Below, one piece after another: positions 35,377 to 63,502 of a DNA stretch of 64,000 bases. The DNA lies in assembly GCF_057098645.1 (NCBI RefSeq), contig NZ_CM169472.1, one strand, 5' to 3'. A model generated the notes under the pieces. That model worked only from the letters and a program-made list of their open reading frames with translations. It was not told the origin of the DNA and did not search any database. How positions within the stretch are numbered: position 1 is the stretch's first letter; each line of letters starts with the position of its first letter. The translations under genes and the position numbers were made by a program.

Positions 35377-35474
35377 CTTCCATTAATCCCTGAATTGTTG
35401 GTTAATACGCTTGAGGGTGAATGCGAACAATAAAAAAGGAGCCTGTAGCTCCCTGATGATTTTGCTTTTCATGC

Positions 35475-35690: not shown

Positions 35691-35766
35691 TGAACAAGTC
35701 CCATGTCGGCAAGCATAAGCACACAGAATATGAAGCCCGCTGCCAGAAAAATGCATTCAGTGGTTG

Positions 35767-36790: not shown

Positions 36791-37572
36791 GCTGCCACCT
36801 TCTGCTCAGTGGCTTTCTGTTTCAGGAATCCAAGAGCTTTCACTGCTTCGGCCTGTGTCAGTTCTGACGATGCGCGAATGTCGCGGCGAAATATCTGGGA
36901 ACAGAGCGGCAATAAGTCGTCATCCCATGTTTTATCCAGGGCGATTAGCAGAGTGTTAATCTCCTGCATGGTTTCATCGTTAACCGGAGTGATGTCGCGT
37001 TCCGGCTGGCGTTCTGCAGTGTATGCAGTATTTTCGACAATGCGCTCGGCTTCATCCTTGTCATAGATACCAGCAAATCCGAAGGCCAGACGGGCACACT
37101 GAATCATGGCTTTATGCCGTAACATCCGTTTAGGATGCGACTGCCACGGCCCCGTGATTTCTCTGCCTTCGCGGGTTTTGAATGGTTCGCGGCGGCATTC
37201 ATCCATCCATTCGGTAACGCAGATCGGATGATTACGGTCCTTGCGGTAAATCCGGCATGTACAGGATTCATTGTCCTGCTCAAAGTCCATGCCATCAAAC
37301 TGCTGGTTTTCATTGATGATGCGGGACCAGCCATCAACGCCCACCACCGGAACGATGCCGTTCTGCTTATCAGGGAAGGCGTAAATTTCTTTCGTCCACG
37401 GATTAAGGCCGTACTGGTTGGCGACGATCAACAATGCGATGAACTGCGCATCGCTGGCATCGCCTTTAAATGCCGTCTGGCGAAGAGTGGTGATCAGTTC
37501 CTGTGGGTCGACAGAATCCATGCCGACACGTTCAGCCAGCTTCCCTGCCAGCGTTGCGAGTGCTGTACTCAT
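36787..37572 (-). CDS. bet: Lambda Bet (Red-beta) single-strand annealing protein
   Basis: 261 aa, [59 protein letters not shown]... Confidence 0.95.
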
Positions 37573-37577
37573 CCGTT

Positions 37578-37994
37578 TTATACCTCTGAATCAATATCAA
37601 CCTGATGGTGAGCAATGGTTTCAACCATGTACCGGATGTGTTCTGCCATGCGCTCCTGAAACTCAACATCGTCATCAAACGCACGGGTAATGGCTTTTTT
37701 GCTGGCCCCGTGGCGTTGCAAATGACCGATGCATAGCGATTCAAACAGGTGCTGGGGCAGGCCTTTTTCCATGTCGTCTGCCAGTTCTGCCTCTTTCTCT
37801 TCACGGGCTATCTGCTGGTAGTGACGCGCCCAGCTCTGAGCCTCAAGACGATCCTGAATGTAATAAGCGTTCATGGCCGAACTCCTGAAATAGCTGTGAA
37901 AATATCGCCCGCGAAATGCCGGGCTGATTAGGAAAACAGGAAAGGGGGTTAGTGAATGCTTTTGCTTGATCTCAGTTTCAGTATTAATATCCAT
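37578..37994 (-). CDS. gam: Lambda Gam (RecBCD inhibitor)
   Basis: 138 aa, [61 protein letters not shown]... Confidence 0.95.
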
Positions 37995-38092
37995 TTTTTA
38001 TAAGCGTCGACGGCCTCACGAAACATCTTTTCATCGCCAATAAAAGTGGCGATAGTGAATTTAGTCTGGATAGCCATAATTGTTTGATCCAT
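37949..38092 (-). CDS. kil: Lambda Kil (FtsZ inhibitor)
   Basis: 47 aa, [47 protein letters not shown]. Confidence 0.85.
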
Positions 38093-38225
38093 TTTTTGGG
38101 ACTCCTGGCTGATTAAGTATGTCGATAAGGCGTTTCCATCCGTCACGTAATTTACGGGTGATTCGTTCAAGTAAAGATTCGGAAGGGCAGCCAGCAACAG
38201 GCCACCCTGCAATGGCATATTGCAT
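38061..38225 (-). CDS. cIII: Lambda cIII (FtsH inhibitor)
   Basis: 54-aa ORF beginning MQYAIAGWPVAGCPSESLLER, overlapping kil by 32 nt as in lambda; below the ORF-track cutoff. Confidence 0.85.
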   Translation of the reverse strand: MQYAIAGWPVAGCPSESLLERITRKLRDGWKRLIDILNQPGVPKNGSNNYGYPD

Positions 38226-38297
38226 GGTGTGCTCCTTATTTATACATAACGAAAAACGCCTCGAGTGAAGCGTAATTGGTATGCGGTAACGCCGCGC

Positions 38298-38666
38298 TCA
38301 GGCGGCCTTGATAGTCATATCATCTGAATCAAATATTTCTGATGTATCGATATCGGTAATTCTTATTCCTTCACTACCATCCATTGGAGGCCATCCTTCC
38401 TGACCATTTCCATCATTCCAGTCGAACTCACACACAACACCATATGCATTTAAGTCGCTTGAAATTGCTATAAGCAGAGCATGTTGCGCCAGCATGATTA
38501 ATACAGCATTTAATACAGAGCCGTGTTTATTGAGTCGGTATTCAGAGTCTGACCAGAAATTATTAATCTGGTGAAGTTTTTCCTCTGTCATTACGTCATG
38601 GTCGATTTCAATTTCTATTGATGCTTTCCAGTCGTAATCAATGATGTATTTTTTGATGTTTGACAT
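38298..38666 (-). CDS. ea10: Lambda Ea10-like protein
   Basis: 122 aa, MSNIKKYIIDYDWKASIEIEIDHDVMTEEKLHQINNFWSDSEYRL... Confidence 0.8.
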   Translation of the reverse strand: MSNIKKYIIDYDWKASIEIEIDHDVMTEEKLHQINNFWSDSEYRLNKHGSVLNAVLIMLAQHALLIAISSDLNAYGVVCEFDWNDGNGQEGWPPMDGSEGIRITDIDTSEIFDSDDMTIKAA

Positions 38667-38685
38667 CTGTTCATATCCTCACAGA

Positions 38686-38712
38686 TAAAAAATCGCCCTC
38701 ATCTTGGAGGGC
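38686..38712 (-). terminator. Intrinsic terminator in the pL operon, upstream of ea10
   Basis: Minus strand gccctc-caagat-gagggc followed by gATTTTTT. Confidence 0.55.
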
Positions 38713-38854
38713 AAAGAAGATTTCCAATAATCAGAACAAGTCGGCTCCTGTTTAGTTACGAGCGACATTGCTCCGTGTATTCACTCGTTGGAATGAATAC
38801 ACAGCGCTGTGTTTATTCTGTTGTTTGCGTGAAAATGAAATCCGCCTGAGCGGG

Positions 38855-39736
38855 TTATGACCACTTTTTGTTTGGGTTTCGTTGGTGAGCGTGGTTTACA
38901 GGATTATTTGATATACCCCATAACTCTGACTCGCTTATCTCTACACGAGAGAAAGACCTGCTTTCTTTCAGTTCTTTTATAAACCTAGAACCTAAGATGA
39001 CATCTATTGTACCAGAAAGTTCTTGTAAAAGATCTTTGTTTTTTCTGAGGAAGAAAATATCTTCTTTATATTTAATTTTTACATAGAATTTATTCTGTAT
39101 TTTTAATATATCAAAGCATGGCAGATATCTATATCCCTCATATTTTCGCCACTGCTTAACAATTATAACATCTTTTTCATTTACTGCATTAATCAGCCCA
39201 AGACCAAGTACAGGTATGAATATTCTATTGTCTGCCGAAAGCGTACAATTATCACCACCAGGCAAATATGTATAAATCATGTCGGAATTTTTATACGCAT
39301 CAACGAATGCACGTAAGAAGCGTACATATTTTTGCCATCCGTTTATACCGAATTTACCATATAAGTATTCTTTATTTGTTAGAAGAAAACTATTTGTATC
39401 AGGATCCTTATCTACAGACCTGTCGATAAGATCTCCAACTACGTTTACAAAGTCAAAGACAGAGTTTAATAAGAACAATTGTCTTTCAGTAGGGCGAATT
39501 TCAATTATGTAGCCAGGATGAAGACGATATTGCATCTGCTTACGAAGTATACCGAACGCTTGGGTCCGAGCATCTGAAAGCAACTTCTTGTCGCCATCGC
39601 CGTGAGCATTGTTTCTAATAAAACTGATATAATTTGCTAATTTTTCAGCCTCTTTTTTGTGTTTTTTTCGCTCTGATGCTGAGTCTATTGGTTTTGGTAT
39701 GGACTTGTAATCAATCTTCTTCATTACGTACCTCAT
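38855..39736 (-). CDS. Uncharacterised 293-aa protein translationally coupled to N (lambda ral/sieB slot)
   Basis: Start ATG overlaps the N stop (ATGA), visibly AT-rich, lambda ral/sieB absent at this position; no motif I can assign. Confidence 0.6.
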   Translation of the reverse strand: MRYVMKKIDYKSIPKPIDSASERKKHKKEAEKLANYISFIRNNAHGDGDKKLLSDARTQAFGILRKQMQYRLHPGYIIEIRPTERQLFLLNSVFDFVNVVGDLIDRSVDKDPDTNSFLLTNKEYLYGKFGINGWQKYVRFLRAFVDAYKNSDMIYTYLPGGDNCTLSADNRIFIPVLGLGLINAVNEKDVIIVKQWRKYEGYRYLPCFDILKIQNKFYVKIKYKEDIFFLRKNKDLLQELSGTIDVILGSRFIKELKESRSFSRVEISESELWGISNNPVNHAHQRNPNKKWS

Positions 39737-40056
39737 GCCAATGGAATGGATTCCCCTTTAACCTTTTGTCTTCCTTGACAAGTTATACCGAACTCACCTG
39801 GCTTGCTATACCAAACTCGATGATTCTTGCGCTCAATACGTTGCAGGTTGCTTTCAATCTGTTCGTGGTATTCAGCCAGCACCGTAAGGTCTATCGGATT
39901 CAGTGCGCTTTCTACTCGTGATTTCGGTTTGCGATTCAGCGAGAGAATAGGGCGGTTAACTGGTTTAGCGCTTACCCCAACCAACAGGGGATTTGCTGCT
40001 TTCCATTGAGCCTGTTTCTCTGCGCGACGTTCGCGGCGGCGTGTTTGTGCATCCAT
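39733..40056 (-). CDS. N: Lambda antiterminator N
   Basis: 107 aa, MDAQTRRRERRAEKQAQWKAANPLLVGVSAKPVNRPILSLNRKPKSRVESALNPIDLTVLAEYH... Confidence 0.9.
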   Translation of the reverse strand: MDAQTRRRERRAEKQAQWKAANPLLVGVSAKPVNRPILSLNRKPKSRVESALNPIDLTVLAEYHEQIESNLQRIERKNHRVWYSKPGEFGITCQGRQKVKGESIPLA

Positions 40057-41575: not shown

Positions 41576-41617
41576 TGAACCGCCCCGGGTTTCCTGGAGA
41601 GTATTTTATCTGTGAAC

Positions 41618-42508
41618 TCAGGCTGCCAGATCATTATTTCCGATGGAAGCATAATAAGCTTTTTCTGCTTCTGCCGGAGGAATATGGCCCAGCCTTTCCA
41701 GCAATCGTCGATTGTTATACCAGTCCACCCACGTGAGTGTGGCCAGTTCCACTTCTGCACGGTTTTTCCAGCTCTTACGGTGTATTACCTCCGCTTTGTA
41801 AAGACCATTGATGCTCTCCGCCATCGCGTTGTCATACGAGTCGCCAGTACTCCCTGTTGATGCCAGTAATCCGGCTTCCTTAAGCCGCTGCGTGTAGGCC
41901 AGCGATACATACTGAGAACCTTTATCACTGTGATGGATTGTGCCGGACGGCCGACGGGCCCACAACGCCTGCTCCAGTGCATCCAGCACGAATGTTGTTT
42001 CCATGGATGATGAGACCTGCCATCCCACGATGTATCCGGCGAACACATCAATGATGAACGCCACATAAACGAAGCCCCGCCATGTGCTGACGTAAGTAAA
42101 ATCAGCCACCCACAGCTGGTCAGGTCGTTCTGCCACGAACTGACGGTTTACGCGGTCGCCTGCGGCAACGGCTTTCCGGCTGATGGTCGTACGGACCTTT
42201 TTACCCCGGAGAACACCGGCAAGTCCCATAACTGCCATGAGACGTGCCACAGTGCATCTGGCCACTCTGATACCTTCCCGTAACAACTGACGCCAGACTT
42301 TACGCACACCGTATACCTGGTGATTTTCATCGTATACGCGCTGTATCTCTTTCTTCAGCCAGTCATCGTGCTGCGCACGGGCACTGCGTTTATCCGGATG
42401 ATGTCGCTGTTGCTGACAGTGGTAATACGTTGACGGGGCAATATGCAGTTCGCTGCATAGCGGTCCGACCCCGTACTGCTCACGCAGCTTATCCAGCAGT
42501 GGCATCAT
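41618..42508 (-). CDS. IS629-like transposase OrfB (DDE/integrase domain)
   Basis: 296-aa ORF with IS3-family DDE region ([10 protein letters not shown]...[11 protein letters not shown]). Confidence 0.85.
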
Positions 42509-42831
42509 TTTTTCCAGAGGCGGTCGAACTCCGCCTTCGCAAAATAAGCGGAAGCCTGGCGAAGGATATCGTTACTGCGGCGCAGTTCACGATTTTCACG
42601 CTCCAGCTCTTTCAGACGCTGACGTTCAGCGGTGGTGAGCCCGCCATCACCGCCCCCGGTATCCCGCTCATGCTGGCGAACCCAGACACGCAGAGTCTCC
42701 GGCGTACAGCCAATCTTTGGAGCAATGGAACAAATTGTCGCCCATTGTGAGTCATATTCATCCTGACTTTCCAGAACCATACGAATCGCCCGCTGACGGA
42801 CTTCGGGGGAAAAACGAGTATTTTTAGTCAT
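42505..42831 (-). CDS. IS629-like transposase OrfA (HTH)
   Basis: 108 aa, [50 protein letters not shown]... Confidence 0.85.
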
Positions 42832-42885
42832 CCTGTTTACCTCTTTCTCAGGGAGTTTAGTCTCCAGGATTTCCGGGGCGGTTCA

Positions 42886-43265
42886 ACCAGCCAGAAAACG
42901 ACCTTTCTGTGGTGAAACCTGATGCTGCATGGGGGACAGCAGAAGACCTGACCGCCGCAGAGTGGATGTTTGACATGGTGAAGACTATCGCGCCATCAGC
43001 CAGAAAACCGAATTTTGCAGGGTGGGCTAACGATATCCGCCTGATGCGTGAACGTGACGGACGTAACCACCGCGATATGTGTGTGCTGTTCCGCTGGGCC
43101 TGCCAGGACAACTTCTGGTCCGGTAATGTGCTGAGCCCGGCCAAACTCCGCGACAAGTGGACCCAGCTCGAAATCAACCGTAACAAGCAACAGGCAGTCG
43201 TGACAGCCAGCAAACCAAAACTCGACCTGACAAACACAGACTGGATTTACGGGGTGGATTTATGA
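42886..43265 (+). pseudogene. O: Lambda O replication initiator, C-terminal fragment only
   Basis: ...WGTAEDLTAAEWMFDMVKTIAPSARKPNFAGWANDIRLMRERDGRNHRDMCVLFRW...TDWIYGVDL; begins at the IS boundary. Confidence 0.8.
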
Positions 43266-47111: not shown

Positions 47112-48071
47112 TTAAAAAAAGAAGGTGATTGCTCCATTTATAAATGAATAGTCATCCCCTGTCTTGAATTCTGATGTTACTTTATTAAATGCTAGTGTGA
47201 AGGCTACAGGTGCATACCCAATTGTTGCGCCAACTTGATATTCATCAACAGTTTTGTTTAGCGATACTGTTGTTTGTTTCGTCTGTATTGTTTTTCCTTC
47301 GAGAGTATAGTTGCGATTGACATCTCGTCTTTCCATACCTGCAAAAATCTTGTATTTGAATCCGCTTGTATCGGACATATGCATTAAACCACGGGGAGCC
47401 AGCAGACCAAAGCCATTATCCGAATTGAAGGTTTTATCATTACCAATGGCAATGGTTGCGCCATATGCTACATATTGAAATAAGTTTCCAGTAACAGCAG
47501 AAACTTCAGGGTATAATCCAACATTAGCACCTAAAATATCCATACTTGGTGTCATGGATAGCATCCCTTTTACAGTATAACCGTAGCGATTCTCTATTTG
47601 ATCATCCCATGCATGATATTTTTCTGCCCCAATAATCTCATGAGCTTTATTTTGTACTTTCTGACCGCCTGCGTCGGGGCCAACAACACCTATGTCAGTA
47701 CCTAATCGATAGCGAATCCAGTCATTCGCAAGGGAGTTCCATTCAATACCAGTGTGAGTGTATGCACTAAAAGCTCTGTCTCCAGTTACAGCTGTGTTGT
47801 GTCTTTTATTACTGCCTGATGGAGAGTAAATATCTTGCGCAATATGGAGAGATAATTGGCTCGAGTCTGAGATATCGTGGCTATATCCCAGAAATAAGCC
47901 TTGTGAGTAATCATCTCTGTTTTCATGTTTATTGCCATAAATATCATTAAGTATTGGTTGAAACTTCCCTGCATCATCATTTGCTAATGATAATGCAAGG
48001 CTGTTCGCGATAGCTGAACACGTGGTAAATGACAGAGCAATAAAGACGCCAGCGATGACACTTTTTTTCAT
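47112..48071 (-). CDS. Outer-membrane beta-barrel protein, LpxR (lipid A 3-prime-O-deacylase)-like by length and architecture
   Basis: 319 aa, signal peptide MKKSVIAGVFIALSFTTCSAIA, C-terminal aromatic residues (ITFFF); visibly AT-rich with a long AT-rich upstream region. Confidence 0.45.
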   Translation of the reverse strand: MKKSVIAGVFIALSFTTCSAIANSLALSLANDDAGKFQPILNDIYGNKHENRDDYSQGLFLGYSHDISDSSQLSLHIAQDIYSPSGSNKRHNTAVTGDRAFSAYTHTGIEWNSLANDWIRYRLGTDIGVVGPDAGGQKVQNKAHEIIGAEKYHAWDDQIENRYGYTVKGMLSMTPSMDILGANVGLYPEVSAVTGNLFQYVAYGATIAIGNDKTFNSDNGFGLLAPRGLMHMSDTSGFKYKIFAGMERRDVNRNYTLEGKTIQTKQTTVSLNKTVDEYQVGATIGYAPVAFTLAFNKVTSEFKTGDDYSFINGAITFFF

Positions 48072-50706: not shown

Positions 50707-52556
50707 ATGTCGATTAAACATTACGATGTTGTCAGGGCGGCGTCGCCGTCAGACCTTGCGGAAAAGCTGACACACAAACTGAAAGAGGGCTGGCAGCCAT
50801 ACGGCGGACCGGTTGCCATTACGCCGTACACACTGATGCAGGCGGTGGCTATTGAAGGAGAGCCACAGGTCGGCCCTTCATCTGAGCCGGATTGGTACTA
50901 CGTCATCGTACTGGCCGGGCAGTCCAATGCCATGGCTTACGGTGAAGGGCTTCCGCTGCCGGATTCATACGATGCTCCGGATCCGCGCATTAAACAGCTG
51001 GCGCGCCGCAGTACAGTGACGCCGGGCGGGGCTGCCTGCAGATATAACGATATTATTCCGGCTGACCACTGTCTGCATGATGTGCAGGATATGAGTACGC
51101 TGAATCATCCGAGGGCTGACCTGAGCAAAGGGCAGTACGGCTGTGTCGGTCAGGGTTTACATATTGCCAAAAAACTGCTCCCGTATATCCCGAATAACGC
51201 GGGGATCCTGCTGGTACCATGCTGTCGTGGTGGTTCGGCATTTACCCAGGGCGCGGAGGGGACATTCAGCGAGTCCACGGGGGCCAGTCAGGATTCGGCA
51301 CGCTGGGGGTGGGCAAGCCGTTATATCAGGATCTGATTTCCCGCACAAAAGCGGCATTGCAGAAAAATCCCAAAAACGTTCTGCTGGCCGTCTGCTGGAT
51401 GCAGGGTGAGTTTGACATGAGCGCCGCCACCCACGCACAGCAACCTGCGCTGTTTACAGCCATGCTGACACAGTTTCGTGCTGACCTCTCCGTGTTTAAC
51501 GCGCAGTGCCATGGTGGCAGTGCTGCAGATGTGCCGTGGATTTGTGGTGACACGACGTATTACTGGAAAAATACATACGCTACCCAGTACGACACCGTGT
51601 ACGGCGGGTATAAAAACAGGGAGAGTGAGGGCGTTTATTTTGTGCCCTTCATGACAGACGGTAACGGCGTCAATACCGCCACTAACGCGCCGGCAGAAGA
51701 TCCGGATATTCCGGCATCAGGATATTACGGTGCGGCATCGAGAACGAATGGAAACCAGGTATCATCAAACCGCCCGACACATTTCAGTTCATGGGCGCGC
51801 AGGAGCATTATTCCGGATCGTCTGGCAACCGCTATTCTGAACGCAGCCGGGCGCACCTCAGCCTTCATCAGTGGTAAGGCACCGGAAATCAAACCCTCGC
51901 CCGGCGGCAACACGCCATCGGGTCCGTCTGCAGATACGTCCGTTCGCACAATCTCCCTGCTGCCGGCAGCCGGAGAGGCTGCTGCGCAGGGCTGGAGCAT
52001 TAAGGATGGCGGAATTCAGTTGTCAGATGGTGTATTTAAGATCACCAAGCAGAGCAATAAAACCTGGTCCCTGACGCATCCGGTGGATGACGCAATTACC
52101 CTGCTGACACAGGGCGGCAGACTGACCTGTAAGTTCCGCCTGTCAGGCGCACTGACCAACAATCAGTTCGGGCTGGGGATTTATCTGTATACGGATGCTC
52201 CCGTTCCTGATGGTGTGGCGATGACGGGTACCGGTAATCCGTTCCTGATGTCGTACTTCACTCAGACCACTGACGGCAGAGTGAATCTGATGCATCACAG
52301 GAAAGCCGGAAACACGAAGCTGGGGGAGTTCGGCGATTACGGTAACGACTGGCAGACGCTGGAGCTGGTGTTCACCGCCGGCAGTGCCACGGTTACTCCG
52401 AAACTGAATGGAGTGGCTGGCCCGGCATTCCAGGTTATAAAAGACAGTCTGACACTGGGACTGAATGCGCTGACGCTGACGGATGTTACAAAAAATGCAG
52501 CGTATGGCGTTGAGATAGAAAGTCTGATGCTGGAGATAAATGCACCGGCAGCATAA
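50707..52556 (+). pseudogene. Prophage sialate O-acetylesterase-like (NanS-p family) gene, split by a frameshift at a G5 run
   Basis: N-terminal esterase half (GQSN motif) in ORF 50707..51336 and C-terminal half in ORF 51219..52556; the frames meet at the G-run near 51281-51285. Confidence 0.6.
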
Positions 52557-52728
52557 TAAAAAAAGCCAGCGACTGACCTGAAAAAGAAGACGCTGGCTAA
52601 AAGGCCTTATATGTTTGTAGAGACTTATTTTTCACAGACAGCAATGATGCCTGTCAATATATTATCAATATGCGGATTGTTTCAGTTACAGATGCCTTAT
52701 TAAGGAAAAAAACAGCCAGCTGTAGTGG

Positions 52729-53756
<1,028 letters not shown>

Positions 53757-53760
<4 letters not shown>

Positions 53761-54197
53761 TGCCACTGCTGGATAAGCTGCGTGAGCAGTACGGGGTCGG
53801 ACCGCTATGCAGCGAACTGCATATTGCCCCGTCAACGTATTACCACTGTCAGCAACAGCGACATCATCCGGATAAACGCAGTGCCCGTGCGCAGCGCGAT
53901 GACTGGCTGAAGAAAGAGATACAGCGCGTATACGATGAAAATCACAAGGTATACGGTGTGCGTAAAGTCTGGCGTCAGTTGTTACGGGAAGGTATCAGAG
54001 TGGCCAGATGCACTGTGGCACGTCTCATGGCGGTTATGGGACTTGCCGGTGTTCTCCGGGGTAAAAAGGTCCGTACGACCATCAGCCGGAAAGCCGTTGC
54101 CGCAGGCGACCGCGTAAACCGTCAGTTCGTGGCAGAACGACCTGACCAGCTGTGGGTGGCTGATTTTACTTACGTCAGCACATGGCAGGGCTTCGTG
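53757..54197 (+). pseudogene. IS629-like OrfB, N-terminal part (copy 2), interrupted by IS21-family insertion
   Basis: Matches copy-1 OrfB up to ...[14 protein letters not shown], then reads into the foreign element. Confidence 0.8.
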
Positions 54198-54294
54198 CGT
54201 ATTCCGCTCTATTCGATCACGGATTGGCATCGAAGTCCGATCAGCGATTCGCATCCATTCGATCAACCGGGAACTTAACTTTTTCTACCGCTTT

Positions 54295-55050
54295 TTAACG
54301 CGTTTTTTCGCTGCTTTCCACTACCGGGGGATTTTTCCTCAGTGACTCTCCCTGAAGGACCACTCGGTGTGAGTTATGTACCAGTCTGTCCAGGATGGCA
54401 TCTGCTGTTGTTGGGTTCTCCATCAGACCATGCCATTTATCTACCGGGAACTGGCTTACCACTATCGTGCTGCTTTGTCCGTAACGATCCTCTATGAGCT
54501 CCAGAAGGTCATTACACTGGGCGTTACTTAACTGTTCCAGCCCCAGATCGTCCAGGATTAGAACCTGTATTTTTTGCAACTGTTTCAGATATTTCAGCCA
54601 GCTGCCATCAACACGTCCCTGAGCCAGTTGTTCCAGTAATCGCCCGGTTCTACAGTACCGGACGCTGTGTTTCTGTCGACATGCCTGTTCGCCCAGCGCA
54701 TTGGCTATCCAGCTCTTGCCACATCCTGTCGGACCGGTTATCAGCAGGTTTTTCCTGTGGGTTATGTAGTGGCCGTTCAGCAGTTCTCTCATCTGTTCAG
54801 CCCGCAGACCTCTTGAGGCCGGATAGCGCAGCCCTTCCGGTGTTGCCTGGTATTTCAGGCCGGCATTTTTTCTCAACCGTGCCACACGGCTGTTTTCCCT
54901 GCTCAGAAGCTCGTCATCAACCAGCAGCGTCAGCCTTTCCTCGAACGACAGTTCGTCGTAGGTCTGAGGCGTTTCCCGCTGCCGTATCAGGCTCCCGGCC
55001 ATCGCCGGGAGTTTCAGTTGGGTCAGTTTGTTTAACAGGTTATCACTCAT
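54295..55050 (-). CDS. istB: IstB-like ATPase helper of IS21-family transposition
   Basis: Walker A GPTGCGKS; start taken at MSDNLLNKLTQLKLP within the longer ORF. Confidence 0.8.
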   Translation of the reverse strand: MSDNLLNKLTQLKLPAMAGSLIRQRETPQTYDELSFEERLTLLVDDELLSRENSRVARLRKNAGLKYQATPEGLRYPASRGLRAEQMRELLNGHYITHRKNLLITGPTGCGKSWIANALGEQACRQKHSVRYCRTGRLLEQLAQGRVDGSWLKYLKQLQKIQVLILDDLGLEQLSNAQCNDLLELIEDRYGQSSTIVVSQFPVDKWHGLMENPTTADAILDRLVHNSHRVVLQGESLRKNPPVVESSEKTR

Positions 55051-55066
55051 ACTGTTGTTCCTTCTG

Positions 55067-56602
55067 TCAGTGGTAGTAGCCCGGACCACGCAGGTTTTCA
55101 TGCTCTGAAGCATATGCCGGATGTTGTTCGCCCTGGCGGGATAATGGAAGCTCCAGGTTCTCCCGATGGTGACGCAGCAGATTGTCGATAAAGCGTCTGT
55201 CAGGGGCGTTATAGTGCAGGGCAACGTAACAGGCCTTTTCCAGCCGTTCCGGGCCGTATTTTTTCTGAAGTGCCAGCAGCCCCAGAACTGCACGATAAGC
55301 CAGTTCCGGATGGGGTTTTGCCTTCAGCATGGATTCAACCACCCGGCCTGTGGACGGGCCCGTACGTTTTCCCTGCTCGATCAGGCGTTCCGGTGTCCAT
55401 GTCCCGTGCTGCCGGTGGCGCTCTGGCATGTGAAGCGGATTGGTTGTGTGTTTATATTCATGTGTGCTGCGCGGATGTTGCGCCACACACTGCCCCTTGT
55501 GCCAGAGCTGTACCACCGACTGCCCCGCCTTCAGTGACAGACGCTGACCGACCAGTTCGTGTGGAACGGAGTACCAGTGACGGGCATATTCAACGTGGTA
55601 GTCAGGGCCAACCTTCACAGCTTTGTATTCCGTGTATTCATAAGGTGCCAGAGGCAGCGGAGAGAGTGCTGGCGCATCCAGTATGCGGAAGCGTTCTGCA
55701 CGGGTTTGATTGCCGTACCCCTTCATTGGCCGGTTATTCATGTCTGTCAGTAACTCCCTAAGGCGCGCATTCAGCGCCCTGAGCGTGTGGAAGGTTTCAT
55801 TACGGATGCGGGCAAGAAGCCATCGTTCAACGATGAGGACGCCGTTTTCTGCTTTTGGTTTATCTTTAGGTTTGCGTGGTCGGGCCGGGATGATAACCGT
55901 GCCATAGTGCTCAGCCAGTGCCTGATAACTGTCGTTGATGACAGGCTCATATCGATCGGCCTTTTTCACTGCGCTTCTGAGGTTATCGGGGATGAGCAGC
56001 TTCGGTACGCCGCCCAGGAAGGTCAGGCAACGGCTGTGGGCATTTAACCATGACATCATGTCCTGACCTTCGCACGCTTCAACGTAGGTATAGTTGGACG
56101 CCCCCATTACGGCCACGAAGATTGCCACGCGGCGTATCTCACCGGTGTCCGGATTAATAACAGGAACCGTAGGACCACAGAAGTCGATAAAAAGCTTTTC
56201 GCCGGCACGATGCTCCTGGCGCATGGAGAGACGTCGCGTTTTTTTCCACTCCCGGTAGCAACGGCAGAAGTGCGAGTATCCCATCGCTTTGTTACCCGCC
56301 TGTGCCTTGTATTCCATCCACAACAGTTGCCGCGTCACACCTGGTTTTCTCATTTCCGTATCGAAGTACAACATGTCAGGCATTACAAGCTCTGATGCAA
56401 AGGTGTCTTTGGGCGGAAAAATGAGTTTCTCCAGCGTGTCATGGGATATATCAGCAGGTAATGGCCATGACAGAGAAGAGGCTTTGAAGCGGGCAAGAAC
56501 CTCAAAAACGGTTGAGGCGCTGATGTGTAACGTCAGTCCGATACAACGGTTAGTCAGCTTCTTGTCGAACTTGAGCTGAAGGATCTTAAAACAGGTTTCC
56601 AT
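55067..56602 (-). CDS. istA: IstA-like IS21-family transposase; start uncertain
   Basis: Long ORF with N-terminal HTH and DDE-type core, ends 16 nt upstream of istB. Confidence 0.7.
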   Translation of the reverse strand: METCFKILQLKFDKKLTNRCIGLTLHISASTVFEVLARFKASSLSWPLPADISHDTLEKLIFPPKDTFASELVMPDMLYFDTEMRKPGVTRQLLWMEYKAQAGNKAMGYSHFCRCYREWKKTRRLSMRQEHRAGEKLFIDFCGPTVPVINPDTGEIRRVAIFVAVMGASNYTYVEACEGQDMMSWLNAHSRCLTFLGGVPKLLIPDNLRSAVKKADRYEPVINDSYQALAEHYGTVIIPARPRKPKDKPKAENGVLIVERWLLARIRNETFHTLRALNARLRELLTDMNNRPMKGYGNQTRAERFRILDAPALSPLPLAPYEYTEYKAVKVGPDYHVEYARHWYSVPHELVGQRLSLKAGQSVVQLWHKGQCVAQHPRSTHEYKHTTNPLHMPERHRQHGTWTPERLIEQGKRTGPSTGRVVESMLKAKPHPELAYRAVLGLLALQKKYGPERLEKACYVALHYNAPDRRFIDNLLRHHRENLELPLSRQGEQHPAYASEHENLRGPGYYH

Positions 56603-56742
56603 AGTGCTCCTGGATTTTCTCTTTCTGGACATTGACGTCTCCACTGGTTTAAACACGGCAATGGAGACTGTGGTGAAAAGAGTTAATTCCCGGAGTGACT
56701 GGCAGGATGCCAATCAATGATCGGAAGCATGCCAAATCGTGA

Positions 56743-57291
<549 letters not shown>

Positions 57292-57303
57292 GTTCACAGA
57301 TAA

Positions 57304-58017
<714 letters not shown>

Positions 58018-58140
58018 TGACAGACAGTGACGGATGTTGTCAAGATATTGTGTCATTTATAACCTGAATCAGGGGAGGCCGGAATGTTATCTGGCATTTT
58101 TAGCAGAGCCTGAATGCCATAATCACGGCTCCCGGCGTTG

Positions 58141-58172
58141 GCCGTCAGTGGGTGACACTGGCGGCTTTTTTG
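58141..58172 (+). terminator. Intrinsic terminator upstream of the lysis cassette
   Basis: gccgtcagtg-ggtga-cactggcggc followed by TTTTTTG. Confidence 0.55.
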
Positions 58173-58221
58173 TTTTTCTTTACTTTCATTTTCTGTCGGC
58201 GGTGACGGAGACATACATCAG

Positions 58222-58428
58222 ATGGAAAAAATCACAACAGGTGTGTCATACACCACGTCAGCGGTGGGGACGGGATACGGGTTACTGCAGCTGCTGGACA
58301 AAGTCTCTCCGTCCCAGTGGGTGGCAATAGGTGTGCTGGGAAGTCTGCTGTTTGGCCTGCTGACGTATCTGACAAATCTTTATTTCAAGATTAAAGAAGA
58401 TAAGCGTAAGGCTGCGAGAGGTGAATAA
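58222..58428 (+). CDS. S: Class II holin, phage 21 S-type (pinholin-like)
   Basis: 68 aa, two TM segments, ...[41 protein letters not shown]. Confidence 0.85.
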
Positions 58429-58925
58429 TGTCGCCGTCATTACGCAAGGCTGTTGCAGCTGCTATTGGTGGTGGGGCTGTTGCCATAGCGTCTGTGCTCA
58501 TCACTGGTCCAGGTGGTAACGATGGTCTGGAAGGTGTCAGCTACATACCATACAAAGATATCGTTGGCGTATGGACTGTATGTCACGGACACACCGGAAA
58601 AGACATCATGCCCGGTAAAACGTATACCGAAGCAGAATGCAAAGCCCTCCTGAATAAAGACCTTGCCACGGTCGCCAGACAAATTAACCCGTACATCAAA
58701 ATCGATATACCGGAAACAACGCGCGGCGCTCTTTACTCGTTCGTTTACAACGTGGGCGCTGGCAATTTCAGAACATCGACGCTTCTTCGCAAAATAAACC
58801 AGGGCGATATCAAAGGCGCATGTGATCAGCTACGGCGCTGGACATACGCTGGCGGTAAGCAATGGAAAGGGCTGATGACTCGCCGTGAGATTGAGCGTGA
58901 AGTCTGTTTGTGGGGGCAACAATGA
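58428..58925 (+). CDS. R: SAR-endolysin, T4-lysozyme-like muramidase
   Basis: 165 aa, N-terminal Gly/Ala-rich SAR segment followed by a lysozyme-type catalytic region. Confidence 0.85.
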
Positions 58926-59359
58926 GCAGAGTAACCGCGATTATCTACGTTCTGGTCATCTGCCTCATCGTCTGCCTTTCATGGGCTGTTAATCATTACC
59001 GTGATAACGCCATCGCCTACAAAGAGCAGCGCGATAAAGCCACATCCATCATCGCTGATATGCAGAAGCGGCAACGTGATGTAGCAGAACTTGACGCCAG
59101 ATACACAAAGGAGCTTGCTGATGCTAATGCGACTATCGAAAGTCTCCGTGCTGATGTTTCTGCTGGGCGTAAGCGCCTGCAAGTCTCCGCCACCTGTGCA
59201 AAGTCAACGACCGGAGCCAGCAGCATGGGCGATGGAGAAAGCCCAGGACTTACAGCAGATGCTGAACTCAATTATTACCGTCTCCGAGGTGGAATCGACA
59301 AGATAACCGCGCAGGTTAACTACCTGCAGGAATACATCAGGACGCAGTGCTTAAAATAA
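58922..59359 (+). CDS. Rz: Rz-like inner-membrane spanin
   Basis: [25 protein letters not shown] segment then coiled-coil; ATG overlaps the R stop. Confidence 0.8.
59121..59306 (+). CDS. Rz1: Rz1-like outer-membrane lipoprotein spanin, embedded in Rz in the +1 frame
   Basis: [20 protein letters not shown] lipobox followed by a Pro-rich segment. Confidence 0.6.
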
Positions 59360-59577
59360 TTTTAATTTCACTGAAATTTAACAAGTGACTTTCAGGAAAA
59401 TGCCTCGCAGATGCGGGGCATTTTTGTACCGGTATTTCACCGCGCACCGCAGCGCACAATAAACACCGAACCTGACCCTTTGGAATGGGCCTTTGAGGAT
59501 ACCAGTTAGTGCTGGCGAGCCTCGGTGGGCTGGTTTCCTATGCGGCAAAGGTTCATTTCAAAGAAGCAGGCAACGCC

Positions 59578-60126
59578 ATGAATGAATTAATTGCGAATCA
59601 TGACTTCGACTTTCGCCAGTTAGTTACCGCAGCAGAAGGTCAACCGGTAACTGACACCTTCCAGATTGCCAGGGCATTTGGTAAACGCCATCAGCATGTG
59701 ATTAGGGCTATTAAATGTTTGAGATGTTCTGAGGAATTCTCGACAACCCATTTTTGGGCCGTCGAGAAAATCAATGACTTAGGTATTTTTGACAAGAAAC
59801 AGATTTACTACCGCATGGACTTTAGTGGCTTCGTTATGCTGGTTATGGGATTTAACGGGGCAAAAGCCGATGCTGTTAAAGAAGCCTATATCAATGCGTT
59901 TAACTGGATGTCAGCAGAACTCCGTAAGTACAGCGAAAGTTATGAAGCAGAACGTAACGCCGTAATGCTGGAGTACATGAAAGAGAAGGATGTCGCCAGC
60001 ATGTCAGGCCGTCTGCTCAATCGCTGGGGGAGAACGAAAAAACCTCAATTGCTTGCAAAGCTGGAACGTCTGGAGAGACAGGGACAGTTTTTATTACCGG
60101 GATTCGATAAAGGTATTCAAGCCTGA
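59578..60126 (+). CDS. Rha-family phage regulatory protein
   Basis: MNELIANHDFDFRQLVTAAEGQPVTDTFQIARAFGKRHQHVIRAI..., start taken at the internal ATG. Confidence 0.55.
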   Translation: MNELIANHDFDFRQLVTAAEGQPVTDTFQIARAFGKRHQHVIRAIKCLRCSEEFSTTHFWAVEKINDLGIFDKKQIYYRMDFSGFVMLVMGFNGAKADAVKEAYINAFNWMSAELRKYSESYEAERNAVMLEYMKEKDVASMSGRLLNRWGRTKKPQLLAKLERLERQGQFLLPGFDKGIQA

Positions 60127-60313
60127 CACATTATGCGCTGTATCGTCGCCGTATTCCCGCATTAACCATGACCGTAGCCCGACGGGGAATTCCTTCTGCG
60201 TGAGTGTGCGGGAATAATCAAAAACGATGCACACCGGGTTTTACTGTGCTGACAGACGCAGGGTTACCCTCATAGTCGCTTTTCCGGTGCGATGGTGGAA
60301 GAAACCGGGATGT

Positions 60314-60508
60314 TCATCCATCATCACTTTGGATTGATGTATATGCTCTCTTTTCTGACGTTAGTCTCCGACGGCAGGCTTCAATGACCCAGGCTGAGAA
60401 ATTCCCAGACCCTTTTTGCTCAAGAGCGATGTTAATTTGTTCAATCATTTGGTTAGGAAAGCGGATGTTGCGGGTTGTTGTTCTGCGGGTTCTGTTCTTC
60501 GTTGACAT
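60314..60508 (-). CDS. Hypothetical small basic protein, possible ribbon-helix-helix DNA binder
   Basis: 64-aa ORF, Arg/Thr-rich N-terminus. Confidence 0.35.
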   Translation of the reverse strand: MSTKNRTRRTTTRNIRFPNQMIEQINIALEQKGSGNFSAWVIEACRRRLTSEKRAYTSIQSDDG

Positions 60509-60707
60509 GAGGTTGCCCCGTATTCAGTGTCGCTGATTTGTATTGTCTGAAGTTGTTTTTACGTTAAGTTGACGCAGATCAATTAATACGATACCTGCGT
60601 CATAATTGATTATTTGACGTGGTTTGATGGCGTAGATGCACGTTGTGACATGTAGATGATAATTATTATCATTTTGCGGGTCCTTTCCGGCGATCCGACA
60701 GGTTACG

Positions 60708-60719
60708 GGGCGGCGACCT
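60708..60719. other. cos: Lambda cosN cohesive-end site, with cosB immediately downstream
   Basis: GGGCGGCGACCT followed by CGCGGGTTTTCGCTATTTATGAAAATTTTCCGG, the lambda left-end sequence. Confidence 0.8.
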
Positions 60720-60902
60720 CGCGGGTTTTCGCTATTTATGAAAATTTTCCGGGAACCATGTCCGGTTTCTCTGCAAGTTAACTACATGAAAAATATAAGA
60801 ACGGGCTTTCCGTGAACCGGACATGCGCAAAAAATGGACATATAAACCGGACATGATCGGTTTTGTGCTAATTGTGAGGTGAGAGTTTTTGCGAGGTGAG
60901 GA

Positions 60903-61412
60903 GTGGCTACGCAGACTGAAGTTGCCAGGCATTTAAGTCTGACCGATCGCCAGCTTCGCAGATTGCAGAAATTGCCGGGTGCCCCGATATCAAATAAGCG
61001 AGGGCAACTGGATCTGGATGCCTGGCGCGATTTTTACATATCGTATCTGAGGAGAAGTAAAAACGATGTGCCTGATGGCGATAGCGAAGACGACTATGAG
61101 GAGAAATTGCTTATTGCCAGATGGGAACTGACAGCAGAACAGGCTGTTACACAGCAGTTAAAAAATGAGGTGTCAAAAGGAAAACTTATTGACACCGGGT
61201 TCTGTATTTTTGCCCTCAGTAAGCTGGCAATGGCGTTATCCAGTACGCTTGATTCCATCCCTTTATCCATGCAGCGACAGTTTCCTGATTTAACACCGCG
61301 CCATCTTGACCATCTGAAAACCCTTATTGCTAAGGGGGCAAATCAGTGTGCGCGGGCAGGGGATAAATTACCGGATTTACTCGATGAATATATCAGAGCA
61401 ACAACTGAATAA
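60903..61412 (+). CDS. Terminase small subunit (Nu1-like), GTG start
   Basis: 169 aa, N-terminal wHTH, C-terminal region resembles recalled lambda Nu1. Confidence 0.8.
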   Translation: MATQTEVARHLSLTDRQLRRLQKLPGAPISNKRGQLDLDAWRDFYISYLRRSKNDVPDGDSEDDYEEKLLIARWELTAEQAVTQQLKNEVSKGKLIDTGFCIFALSKLAMALSSTLDSIPLSMQRQFPDLTPRHLDHLKTLIAKGANQCARAGDKLPDLLDEYIRATTE

Positions 61413-63312
61413 TATGATGGCTGCCGTTTCGGTTGCGCTGCAGCCTCTGGTCAGGGTTGTACCAATGACGGCAGTTGAATGGGCTGATCAAAATTATTAT
61501 CTGCCTAAAGAATCCTCATACGGTGAGGGCGAATGGAAAACGCTGCCATTCCAGATCGCCATTATGAACTGTATGGGTAACGACCAGGTTCGCACGGTTA
61601 ACCTGATTAAATCTGCCCGTGTTGGCTATACAAAGATGTTGCTGGGGGTGGTCGGGTATTTTATTGAGCATAAATCCCGAAACAGTCTGCTTTTTCAGCC
61701 CACGGATTCTGCCGCTGAAGATTTTATGAAGTCTCACGTGGAGGCGACGATTCGGAACGTGCCATGCCTGAAAGACCTTTCCCCATGGCTGGGTCGTAAA
61801 CATCGTGACAATACTCTCACGCTGAAACGCTTTTCATCGGGCGTCGGTTTCTGGTGCCTGGGCGGCGCTGCCGCCAAAAACTACCGTGAAAAATCCGTGG
61901 ACGTGGTCTGCTATGACGAACTTTCCTCGTTCGAGCCGGATGTCGAAAAAGAGGGCTCGCCAACCCTGCTGGGGGATAAGCGTATTGAGGGGTCGGTGTG
62001 GCCAAAATCCATTCGCGGCTCGACGCCTAAAATCAAAGGCACCTGCCAGATCGAAAAAGCCGCTAACGAGTCGGCGCATTTTATGCGTTTTTATGTGCCC
62101 TGCCCGCACTGTGGGGAGGCGCAGTATCTGAAATTTGGCGATGAGTCCACGCCTTTTGGGCTTAAATGGGAGAAGGACAGCCCCGAAAGTGTTTTCTACC
62201 TCTGTGAACATCATGGCTGCGTGATCCATCAGTCTGAACTGGACCAGAGCAACGGGCGGTGGATCTGTGAAAACACGGGCATGTGGACCCGTGACGGTCT
62301 GACGTTTTTCAGCGCCCGGGGTGATGAAATTCCGCCGCCGCGCTCCATCACGTTCCATATCTGGACGGCGTACAGTCCGTTTACCACCTGGGTACAGATA
62401 GTCTATGACTGGCTGGATGCACTGAAAGATCCCAACGGCCTGAAAACCTTTGTGAACACCACGCTGGGCGAGACCTGGGAAGAAGCCGTGGGCGAAAAAC
62501 TCGATCACCAGGTACTGATGGATAAGGTGGTGCATTACACGGCGGCGGTACCTGCCCGGGTGGTTTATCTGACGGCGGGCATTGACTCGCAGCGAAACCG
62601 TTTTGAGATGTATGTCTGGGGATGGGCACCGGGAGAGGAAGCTTTTCTGGTGGATAAAATCATCATTATGGGCCGTCCCGATGAGGAAGAGACGCTGTTA
62701 CGTGTGGATGCGGCGATCAACAAAAAATACTGCCATGCAGACGGAACCGAAATGACCATTTCCCGTGTCTGCTGGGACACCGGGGGGATCGATGGTGAAA
62801 TTGTCTATCAGAGGTCAAAAAAACACGGTGTTTTCCGGGTGCTGCCGGTAAAAGGCGCATCTGTCTATGGCAAGCCGGTGATCACCATGCCGAAAACCCG
62901 CAATCAGCGGGGCGTGTATCTGTGTGAAGTGGGAACGGACACCGCAAAAGAAATTCTCTATGCCCGTATGAAAGCCGATCCCACGCCTGCGGATGAAGCC
63001 ACGTCGTATGCCATCCGTTTTCCTGATGATCCGGAGATTTTTTCGCAGACAGAGGCGCAGCAACTGGTGGCGGAAGAGCTTGTGGAGAAGTGGGAAAAAG
63101 GAAAGATGCGTCTGCTGTGGGATAACAAAAAGCGGCGTAACGAAGCGCTGGACTGCCTGGTGTATGCCTACGCGGCATTACGTGTGTCCGTGCAACGCTG
63201 GCAGCTTGATCTGGCTGTACTGGCAAAATCCCGGGAAGAAGAGACGACCCGGCCAACCCTGAAAGAACTGGCAGCGAAGCTGTCCGGAGGAGTGAATGGT
63301 TACAGTCGCTGA
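61384..63312 (+). CDS. A: Terminase large subunit (lambda gpA homologue)
   Basis: About 642 aa from MNISEQQLNNMMAAV...; TAVEWADQNYYLPKES and other blocks match recalled lambda A. Confidence 0.9.
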   Translation: MNISEQQLNNMMAAVSVALQPLVRVVPMTAVEWADQNYYLPKESSYGEGEWKTLPFQIAIMNCMGNDQVRTVNLIKSARVGYTKMLLGVVGYFIEHKSRNSLLFQPTDSAAEDFMKSHVEATIRNVPCLKDLSPWLGRKHRDNTLTLKRFSSGVGFWCLGGAAAKNYREKSVDVVCYDELSSFEPDVEKEGSPTLLGDKRIEGSVWPKSIRGSTPKIKGTCQIEKAANESAHFMRFYVPCPHCGEAQYLKFGDESTPFGLKWEKDSPESVFYLCEHHGCVIHQSELDQSNGRWICENTGMWTRDGLTFFSARGDEIPPPRSITFHIWTAYSPFTTWVQIVYDWLDALKDPNGLKTFVNTTLGETWEEAVGEKLDHQVLMDKVVHYTAAVPARVVYLTAGIDSQRNRFEMYVWGWAPGEEAFLVDKIIIMGRPDEEETLLRVDAAINKKYCHADGTEMTISRVCWDTGGIDGEIVYQRSKKHGVFRVLPVKGASVYGKPVITMPKTRNQRGVYLCEVGTDTAKEILYARMKADPTPADEATSYAIRFPDDPEIFSQTEAQQLVAEELVEKWEKGKMRLLWDNKKRRNEALDCLVYAYAALRVSVQRWQLDLAVLAKSREEETTRPTLKELAAKLSGGVNGYSR

Positions 63313-63502
63313 ACTGCAGGCGCTGCGTCAGGCGCGCCTTGATTTATTAACCGGTAAACGGGTGGTGTCTGTCCAGAAAGATGGTCGCAGAATTGAATAT
63401 ACGGCGGCTTCTCTGGATGAGCTTAACCGGGCGATCAATGATGCGGAGTCGGTACTGGGGACAACCCGGCGTCGCCGTCGTCCGCTGGGAGTGAGGTTAT
63501 GA
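63296..63502 (+). CDS. W: Head-tail joining protein W
   Basis: 68 aa, MVTVAELQALRQARLDLLTGKRVVSVQKDGRRIEYTAASLDELNRAINDAESVL... Confidence 0.85.
   Translation: MVTVAELQALRQARLDLLTGKRVVSVQKDGRRIEYTAASLDELNRAINDAESVLGTTRRRRRPLGVRL

Follow-up and report, generated by a model that had tools for sequence, protein, structure and literature searches.

A predicted pinholin, SAR endolysin and spanin cassette of the phage 21/434 kind in the mosaic late region of a degraded lambdoid prophage

The lysis genes of phage 21 exemplify a strategy in which a pinholin is combined with a signal-anchor-release (SAR) endolysin, a pathway described in PMC9636201. The complete genome record of phage 21 (OL657228), annotated with S71/S68, R, Rz and Rz1, served as our reference, and structures of its endolysin R21 have been solved (PDB 3HDE and 3HDF). 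The phage 21 holin gene begins with MKSM..., giving rise to the S71 antiholin besides the holin. Phage 434 (OL657226) has a holin with a single start, which is labelled a class II pinholin in its record. Phage lambda follows the same three-step logic with the same gene order, but its holin S is a class I protein with three transmembrane domains (TMDs) and its endolysin R is soluble, without a SAR domain. The spanins of the three phages, a 153-aa Rz and a 60-aa Rz1, are near-identical. A further relative is encoded by rrrD of the prophage DLP12 of E. coli K-12. This gene we take to be part of the K-12 essD-rrrD-rzpD/rzoD lysis cassette and, like the R gene studied here, to lie in a degraded lambdoid prophage.

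We analysed a stretch of DNA of 64 kb (the window), in which a lysis cassette comprising S, R, Rz and Rz1 occupies positions 58222-59359. All four open reading frames (ORFs) are full length, and catalytic as well as targeting residues are intact across them. From its sequence the cassette is almost certainly an intact three-step lysis set, belonging to a lambdoid prophage on the ybhC side of the chromosome of an EHEC-type E. coli. The features were found where the original prediction had placed them, with matches far beyond chance: all four Pfam families (PF04971, PF00959, PF03245 and PF06085) are matched far above the curated cut-offs, and PHROGs assigns S, R, Rz and Rz1 to its lysis category. 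Pfam families, gene order and overlaps (TAATG at S/R, ATGA at R/Rz) are those of phage 21. It is a kind of cassette for which phage 21, phage 434 and many Stx phages provide examples.

This kind of cassette is well known. It is a textbook set of pinholin, SAR endolysin and spanins, real but ordinary and already described, and a ubiquitous component of E. coli prophages. Of 5426 complete E. coli genomes, 5317 have matches to parts of the 3-kb region. The holin type is found in 427 phage records, mostly of Stx-converting phages, and hundreds of Stx phage records encode a holin with 91-98% identity to S. The order S-R-Rz-Rha/KilA-N also occurs in the named phage records IdasGreatGrand and PhiR49_1, and Salmonella phage BTP1 has a block of R, Rz and Rha with 91.5% identity. 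Once checked, the lysis genes held nothing novel, the unusual features being a single-start pinholin with a rare W20G exchange and an Rz1 without a second cysteine. The cassette matters little beyond its correct annotation.

The holin gene S (58222..58428, plus strand) encodes a class II holin of the phage 21 family, presumably a pinholin. Its 68 residues match PF04971, 'Bacteriophage P21 holin S', with 108.9 bits against a cut-off of 26 (E=1.2e-31) over profile positions 1-63 of 64; S21 itself, as a control, scored 122 bits. S is identical to S21-68 at 50 of 68 residues (74%) over the full length and without gaps (BLASTP E=5e-38), and to the phage 434 holin at 67 of 68. The protein was predicted to span the membrane twice, in keeping with two charge-free segments (residues 4-25 and 28-55) that precede a charged C-terminal tail. 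TMD1 is weakly hydrophobic (mean KD 0.78, 55% G/A/S/T), as is TMD1 of S21 (0.52, 55%). In TMD2 the residues aligned to G40, G43, S44 and G48 of S21 are identical. Of these, G40, S44 and G48 (S21-71 numbering) are said to define the small-residue face of TMD2. No alignment to lambda S, the class I holin, was obtained by BLASTP at E<=100, and Pfam gave no match of S to PF05106, which is another family than PF04971 and the one to which lambda S, taken as a control, belongs. An alignment of the holin with class I holins had been named as grounds for rejecting the assignment, and these comparisons did not give one. A search of the PDB with S returned only chance-level matches (E>=0.11).

By homology to S21, S is presumed to be a pinholin forming nanometre-scale pinholes, which would depolarise the membrane without letting a soluble endolysin through. 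Hole size is not readable from sequence, and S might accordingly be a class II holin whose holes are large and non-specific, as with canonical holins, the SAR anchor of R being incidental. We consider this very improbable, given the full-length, ungapped identity of S to S21-68, the prototype pinholin, the conservation of the TMD2 positions aligned to G40, S44 and G48, the pairing of S with a SAR endolysin closely matching R21, and the pinholin label carried by the almost identical protein of phage 434.

Position 58222 is the first ATG, GTG or TTG past the preceding in-frame stop, and S contains no internal methionine. With this single start codon, no antiholin of the S71 type would be made, as in phage 434 and the Stx phages. 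The dual start is a trait of S21 itself and not of the family, so that its absence does not bar S from PF04971.

Position 20 of S is a glycine, whereas the holins of phage 21, phage 434 and an O103:H2 prophage have a tryptophan here; the exchange is also what distinguishes S from its phage 434 counterpart. The exact S protein is rare, being present on 9 contigs. W20G lies in TMD1 and could shift the timing of lysis. A stronger effect, in which W20G makes the holin defective or strongly mistimed and thereby impairs the cassette in spite of its intact ORFs, appears unlikely to us. The tryptophan of the three related holins and the presence of the G20 sequence on only 9 contigs speak for such a defect. 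TMD1 is, however, the most variable part of the protein, holding 11 of the 18 differences between S21 and S. Moreover, S21-68 without TMD1 reportedly still forms lethal holes, so a single change in TMD1 is likelier to shift timing than to abolish function. A literature search on W23 of S21 (S71 numbering) yielded no usable data.

The endolysin gene R (58428..58925, plus strand) starts within the stop codon of S (TAATG) and encodes 165 aa matching the GH24 lysozyme family PF00959 (E=1.2e-45, 155 bits). R is identical at 157 of 165 residues (95%) to R21, the crystallised SAR endolysin of phage 21 (PDB 3HDE), at 163 to R of phage 434, and at 159 (96%) to RrrD of DLP12 (PDB 4ZPU); DLP12, a different prophage at a different chromosomal site, was compared by its RrrD protein only. 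SAR endolysins are characterised by an E-X8-D-X5-T triad and by an N-terminus that is basic and then weakly hydrophobic (PMC9239132), and R has both. The triad is E35, D44 and T50 as in R21, and the Gly/Ala-rich SAR segment of the original prediction corresponds to the charge-free residues 8-31 (62% G/A/S/T) behind R6 and K7. A missing SAR segment had been named as grounds for rejecting the assignment; the segment is kept, and its hydrophobic stretch differs from that of R21 by one exchange, I18V. Between R and lambda R, which is without a charge-free N-terminal run, BLASTP found no significant similarity (best E=1.9). R is thus assigned as an R21-type SAR endolysin, for which export, tethering and release dependent on the proton-motive force are predicted. 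Its exact sequence is even rarer than that of S (4 contigs). With S and R both of the phage 21 family, the attribution of the cassette to the phage 21 strategy of pinholin plus SAR endolysin holds.

The attribution to phage 21 does not extend to the spanins. Rz (58922..59359, plus strand) is a 145-aa i-spanin matching PF03245 (E=1e-34, 119.9 bits) and phrog_13 (Rz-like spanin), with an N-terminal TMD at residues 4-26 (mean KD 2.06). Its ATG overlaps the stop codon of R as ATGA. An alternative start, GTG at 58910, was dropped in favour of ATG 58922, which gives this overlap, a 145-aa protein present on 996 contigs and the start annotated in RefSeq. As had been predicted, Rz contains an out-of-frame lipoprotein ORF. 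This is Rz1 (59121..59306, plus strand), a 61-aa o-spanin lying wholly within Rz in the +1 frame, and it matches PF06085 (E=2.2e-20, 72.5 bits). The lipobox VSAC would yield a mature lipoprotein of 42 aa with lysine at position +2, in line with a signal for sorting to the outer membrane. The exact Rz1 sequence is found on 63 contigs under the names Rz1 or Rz-like spanin and is annotated in Stx2a_WGPS8.

The embedded +1 architecture and both spanin families are shared with lambda. Rz is 54-56% identical to the lambda-type Rz of phages 21, 434 and lambda (53.9% to phage 21), and Rz1 about 35% to the corresponding Rz1 proteins (35.4% to phage 21). The DNA is about 98% identical to phage 434 from 285 bp upstream of S to the 5' third of Rz, and by blastn homology to both 434 and 21 stops inside Rz, at about 59170. 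Phage 434 has the 153-aa Rz and 60-aa Rz1 followed by bor, while the window has its 145-aa Rz and 61-aa Rz1 followed by a Rha/ORF11CD3 gene. Rz is 100% identical in the Stx1a phage Stx1_121427 and 92-95% identical in mEp234, Sf101 and Salmonella phage Emek; most Stx2a phages, VT2-Sakai included, carry another Rz allele, 45-52% identical. By these comparisons Rz/Rz1 is not the lambda-type allele of phage 21 but a P22/Sf101/mEp234-type allele common to some Stx1 phages, mEp234, Sf101 and P22-like Salmonella phages. Of the phage-21-type cassette originally proposed, S and R thus stand and the Rz/Rz1 pair does not. C92 and C143 of Rz align with C99 and C152 of lambda Rz. The only cysteine of mature Rz1 is the lipidated one; the second cysteine, C29 in lambda Rz1, is missing. 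In lambda, C99 and C152 of Rz and C29 of Rz1 serve intermolecular disulfides and are reportedly required for function.

Modelled entirely on homology to S21/R21 and on the lambda Rz/Rz1 paradigm, lysis would proceed as follows. Late transcription antiterminated by Q would provide S, R, Rz and Rz1, whose genes overlap and would be coupled in translation. S would enter the inner membrane with its two TMDs, and the weakly hydrophobic TMD1 would leave the bilayer. TMD2, with its conserved G-x3-S-x3-G face, would oligomerise, and timed triggering would produce small pinholes and collapse of the proton-motive force. R, exported by Sec, would stay inactive and membrane-bound through its N-terminal SAR domain until depolarisation frees it to refold and cleave peptidoglycan via E35, D44 and T50. 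The complex of Rz in the inner membrane and the outer-membrane lipoprotein Rz1, freed from the murein mesh, would finally disrupt the outer membrane.

Whether the cassette acts in this manner in its present place depends on the state of the prophage, which is degraded. A nested insertion sequence (IS) cluster of 5215 bp (52721..57935) lies between nanS-p and S and ends 286 bp upstream of S. Its outer element, of the IS3 family, has a 3-bp target duplication (AGC) and encloses an IS629-like element (53376-54196 and 56835-57334) that is in turn split by an IS21-family element (54197-56834); an ALIL pseudoknot is present at 53715-53831. The O103:H2 prophage, otherwise 99-99.9% identical, lacks this cluster. 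Comparison with the same prophage (99.9% identical) further shows that most of cro, the whole of cII and the 5' part of O have given way to an IS (41576-42888). In addition, nanS-p is frameshifted by a 1-nt deletion. The frameshifted nanS-p and the IS cluster upstream of S set the window apart from the Stx phages; no stx genes were noticed upstream of S in the window. The tRNA genes located upstream of S21 in phage 21 are likewise absent. The left flank is 100% identical to the O145:H28 strains RM12761 and RM13516, in which the prophage has a different lysis cassette, and no complete genome in the collection searched matches the window throughout.

Owing to the IS cluster and the loss of cro, cII and the 5' part of O, expression of the cassette in place is uncertain. 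It may be a genuine but silent relic here, part of a cryptic prophage, cut off from effective late transcription and without a role in lysis. To this we give a probability only somewhat short of even; the question is one of function in place and does not conflict with the identification of the cassette. The IS cluster upstream of S, the IS in the cro-O region and the nanS-p deletion all favour silence, the rarity of the exact S and R sequences would fit drift, and in related O145 strains an IS is found inside the lysozyme gene. Against it stand the full-length lysis ORFs with their intact catalytic and targeting residues. In addition, Q and its downstream region share 99.9% identity with the intact O103:H2 relative, and Q of another prophage in the same cell could act in trans if the specificity is shared. 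RNA polymerase modified by lambda Q passes terminators over tens of kilobases, so the IS cluster need not block late transcription. That the prophage is seen to be degraded, and the cassette may consequently be silent, is one useful outcome of the analysis.

A consensus scan detected a terminator-like hairpin with a T-run at 58140..58176 (plus strand), 46 nt upstream of S, and phage 434 has an annotated terminator in the corresponding position. Late transcription modified by Q would be expected to pass it. At the gathering threshold Rfam found no RNA family within 57936-60900. A 98-aa ORF at 58034-58330 overlapping the start of S was regarded as spurious; it has no Pfam match and spans the hairpin and the ribosome-binding region of S.

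Downstream of Rz, the Rha-family gene named in the original prediction was confirmed by its Phage_pRha and ORF11CD3 domains (PF09669 and PF10549; phrog_518). This anti-repressor-like gene (59509..60126, plus strand, start at 59509 or 59578), whose homologue is annotated in RefSeq as a Rha family regulator, sits where bor stands in lambda, 21 and 434. It is a neighbour outside the lysis machinery. A DUF3950 gene of the YlcI-YnfO family (PF13132; 60314..60508, minus strand) follows. This gene lies in the segment 60134-60707, which by blastn shares 99.1% identity with the phage 434 right end. The segment also contains cosQ (GGGTCCT, 60678-60684, plus strand), identical to that of lambda and located by mapping the 434 annotation across. 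The 12-nt cohesive-end sequence of cosN, GGGCGGCGACCT (60708-60719, plus strand), is also identical to lambda, and positions 60708-60752 match lambda bases 1-45 with 100% identity.

About 45 bp past cosN the alignment diverges from lambda and 21. Here lies the presumed cosB with three exact 11-mers, AACCGGACATG, at 60757-60767 (minus strand), 60815-60825 and 60845-60855 (both plus strand). These are the only three matches in the window, all less than 150 bp from cosN, and they do not resemble the lambda or phage 21 R sequences. The large terminase gene A (61384-63312, plus strand) shares 91.6% identity with phage 21 against 65.5% with lambda. For W (63296-63502, plus strand) the values are 98.5% and 50%, and for the N-terminal part of portal B, which starts at 63499 (plus strand) and runs off the window, 97% and 61%; from 61458 onward the DNA matches phage 21 at 93.5% identity. 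By these identities, the A, W and B alleles are phage-21-like.

The lambda cos of the original prediction is therefore borne out for cosQ and cosN, and its lambda-like Nu1, A, W and B hold as family-level homology only. A lambda packaging backbone is contradicted, as the identities of A, W and B are 92-98% with phage 21 against 50-66% with lambda, and Nu1 and cosB represent yet another type; the lambda/434-like part is confined to the DUF3950 gene through cosQ and cosN. Comparison of the Rz/Rz1 and packaging alleles shows the late region to be a mosaic distinct from lambda S/R, as proposed, but not of the composition first described. Read from the sequence, its order is 434-like S and R, a P22/Sf101-type 3' part of Rz with Rz1 and then Rha, a 434/lambda-like cosQ-cosN, a distinct cosB and Nu1, and phage-21-like A, W and B. 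A proper map of this mosaic is a second useful result.

A third is the adjoining pair of cosB and small terminase subunit (TerS) as a candidate uncharacterised packaging specificity. The Nu1 homologue (60903..61412, plus strand; 169 aa) has a divergent N-terminal domain and is about 30% identical to the Nu1 proteins of lambda and 21. It matches positions 62-163 only of the Pfam Nu1 profile, whereas lambda and 21 Nu1 match 1-164, and with N15 TerS only residues 59-164 align. No BLAST similarity to the lambda, 21 and N15 counterparts was detectable for the N-terminal DNA-binding domain. We tentatively propose this cosB/TerS pair as a possible fourth packaging specificity among cos phages of the lambda kind, one so far uncharacterised by experiment. 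The sequenced phage PhiR12_2 carries the same TerS with 99.4% identity.

The lysis cassette at 58222-59359 comprises four genes on the plus strand, located by an ORF listing and by reading the sequence directly and assigned to families with Pfam. The holin S (58222-58428, 68 aa) matches PF04971 'Bacteriophage P21 holin S' (E=1.2e-31), the endolysin R (58428-58925, 165 aa) the phage lysozyme family PF00959 (E=1.2e-45), the i-spanin Rz (58922-59359, 145 aa) PF03245 (E=1e-34) and the o-spanin Rz1 (59121-59306, 61 aa) the lipoprotein precursor family PF06085 (E=2.2e-20). All four scores exceed the curated cut-offs by a wide margin, and in PHROGs each of the four products falls in the lysis category, which confirms the cassette at the coordinates of the original prediction. 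At the S/R junction (TAATG) the R start codon and the S stop codon share one A, and at the R/Rz junction (ATGA) the Rz start codon overlaps the R stop codon. Rz1 lies wholly within Rz in the +1 frame and is the out-of-frame lipoprotein ORF previously noticed there. Past the cassette come a Rha/ORF11CD3 gene and a minus-strand DUF3950 gene, then cosQ and cosN, and after these the homologues of Nu1, A, W and B, so that the Rha-family gene, cos and packaging genes predicted downstream are all present. Judged from sequence, the set of pinholin, SAR endolysin and spanins is genuine, intact and wholly conventional, and belongs to a cassette type known from earlier experiments and structures.

The assignment of S to the phage-21-type class II holins was borne out. 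Residues 4-25 form a first charge-free, weakly hydrophobic segment (mean Kyte-Doolittle 0.78, 55% G/A/S/T), residues 28-55 form a second charge-free segment holding the most hydrophobic 17-residue window, and a C-terminal tail of 13 residues follows. S aligns without gaps to S21-68, the holin form of the phage 21 protein (50/68 identical, BLASTP E=5e-38), and differs from the phage 434 holin at a single position (67/68 identical). Against lambda S, no BLASTP alignment was obtained at E<=100, and S thus does not align with this class I holin. As Pfam controls, lambda S fell into PF05106, and the phage 21 holin S21 and endolysin R21 into the same families as S and R of the window. S21 starts with MKSM and also makes the antiholin S71, whereas S is single-start, like the 434 holin: position 58222 is the first start codon past the upstream in-frame stop, and an internal Met is absent. 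Codon 20 (58279-58281) is GGG, encoding Gly, where phage 434, S21 and a near-identical prophage of an O103:H2 strain have Trp. Because of this one substitution, W20G, the exact S protein is rare, being found in only 9 public contigs. Located within the SAR-like TMD1, W20G might affect lysis timing.

R begins with MSPSLRK, followed by a charge-free run of 24 residues (62% G/A/S/T) and the triad E-X8-D-X5-T (E35, D44, T50). At the sequence level R matches the hallmarks published for SAR endolysins (PMC9239132): basic residues at the N-terminus, a TMD of weak hydrophobicity and the triad of the lysozymes. The protein is 157/165 identical to R21 (also PDB 3HDE), 163/165 to phage 434 R and 159/165 to DLP12 RrrD (PDB 4ZPU); the best BLASTP match to lambda R reached only E=1.9. 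The Gly/Ala-rich SAR segment, on which the original prediction depended, is therefore present, together with the triad and the close relationship to R21. The exact R protein is rare (4 contigs).

By homology to the pinholin pathway (summarised in PMC9636201 and PMC9239132), late transcription would yield S, R, Rz and Rz1. S would build up in the inner membrane and trigger into small holes, collapsing the PMF; R, exported by Sec and kept inactive by its SAR anchor, would then be released, refold and degrade murein, and the Rz-Rz1 spanin would finally disrupt the outer membrane.

Rz carries a strongly hydrophobic TMD at its N-terminus (residues 4-26), and Rz1 has the lipobox VSAC, Lys at +2 and a mature part of 42 aa. 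C92 and C143 of Rz align with lambda C99 and C152, and the lipidated Cys is the only one in mature Rz1. In lambda, one distal disulfide is enough; by analogy, the lone Cys of Rz1 is therefore unlikely to be disabling. The phage-21-type label does not extend to the spanins. Phages 21, 434 and lambda all have essentially the same allele (153-aa Rz, 60-aa Rz1), to which Rz of the window is 54-56% and Rz1 about 35% identical, and DNA homology to 434 (about 98% across S and R) and to 21 stops inside Rz at about 59170. The window Rz allele recurs unchanged (100% identity) in the Stx1a phage Stx1_121427 and, at 92-95% identity, in mEp234, Sf101 and Salmonella phage Emek, whereas most Stx2a phages have a third allele (45-52% identical). 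The block 59171-60133, covering the 3' part of Rz/Rz1 and the Rha/ORF11CD3 gene, is missing from lambda, 21 and 434, which instead carry bor on the opposite strand; the Salmonella P22-like phage BTP1 has it at about 91% identity.

Lambda (NC_001416), phage 21 (OL657228) and phage 434 (OL657226), each with its annotated genome, served as references for the packaging region as well as for the cassette. The description as a lambda packaging backbone holds for the cosQ-cosN segment: 60134-60707 (DUF3950 to cosQ) shares 99.1% identity with 434 and 96% with lambda, and 60708-60752 matches lambda bases 1-45 at 100% identity. It fails for A, W and B, which are phage-21-like: A is 91.6% identical to phage 21 versus 65.5% to lambda, W 98.5% versus 50%, and the N-terminal part of B 97% versus 61%. 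Divergence of A from phage 21 is confined to the first 50 aa (44% identity there). Hence the core reading of pinholin and SAR endolysin stands, and the labels for the spanins and the packaging module do not.

Outside the cassette, cosB and Nu1, lying between the lambda-like cos and the phage-21-like A/W/B, differ in type from these neighbours. To the right of the lambda-identical cosN, at 60757-60855, the 11-mer AACCGGACATG occurs three times without mismatch, once inverted and twice direct, and it has no other match in the 64-kb window. The small terminase TerS (60903-61412) matches the Pfam Nu1 profile at positions 62-163 only, versus 1-164 for lambda and 21 Nu1, to which it is about 30% identical; it aligns with N15 TerS only from residue 59 on. 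Over its N-terminal ~60 aa, BLAST gives no similarity to the TerS of lambda, 21 or N15. The same TerS (99.4% identical) is found in PhiR12_2, a sequenced phage with E. coli K-12 MG1655 as recorded host, and full-length relatives (43% identity) occur in Pseudomonas phages. The presumed cosB with its AACCGGACATG repeats and the divergent TerS may represent a further, uncharacterised packaging specificity.

Of the 5426 complete E. coli genomes, 5317 match parts of the 3-kb region, and the holin type recurs in 427 phage records, most of them of Stx-converting phages. The exact Rz sequence was found in 996 contigs, that of Rz1 in 63 and the 182-aa Rha product in 141. The E. coli O145:H28 strains RM12761 and RM13516 match the left flank (24000-40000, ybhC side) at 100% identity. 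At this site, the RM12761 prophage (compared over 796000-822000 of that genome) has the same Nu1, A and W but another lysis cassette, made up of a 71-aa holin, YdfR, a 177-aa lysozyme and a 155-aa Rz, and where the window has Rha it has a PerC-family gene; the two cassettes at a single locus illustrate module swapping.

Three differences separate the window prophage from its O103:H2 relative (99-99.9% identical). A 5215-bp triple-nested IS cluster (52721-57935) lies between nanS-p and S, ending 286 bp upstream of S; an outer IS3-family element, flanked by a 3-bp target duplication (AGC), contains an IS629-like element and this an IS21-family element. Another IS629-like element (41576 to ~42888-42928) replaces about 1.2 kb that holds the greater part of cro, the whole of cII and the 5' part of the replication gene O, a loss that should leave the prophage replication-defective. 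Finally, nanS-p (50707-52556), encoding a SASA carbohydrate esterase, lacks 1 nt near 51304 compared with the intact 616-aa homologue, which splits it into two ORFs. The prophage is thus degraded, and Q-modified transcription may no longer reach the cassette. The Q ORF is intact, and a terminator-like hairpin (58140-58176) lies where phage 434 has an annotated terminator. An Rfam isrC match (57745-57867, minus strand) falls inside the outer IS. Upstream of Q, in the late-regulatory region, lies a moron of the lipid A deacylase LpxR family (47112-48071, minus strand), annotated in the O103:H2 and O145 relatives. Left of the prophage, the ordinary E. coli chromosome carries a CpoB/ybgF thermometer (5145-5283) and seven clustered tRNA genes with an RtT element (6210-7008).
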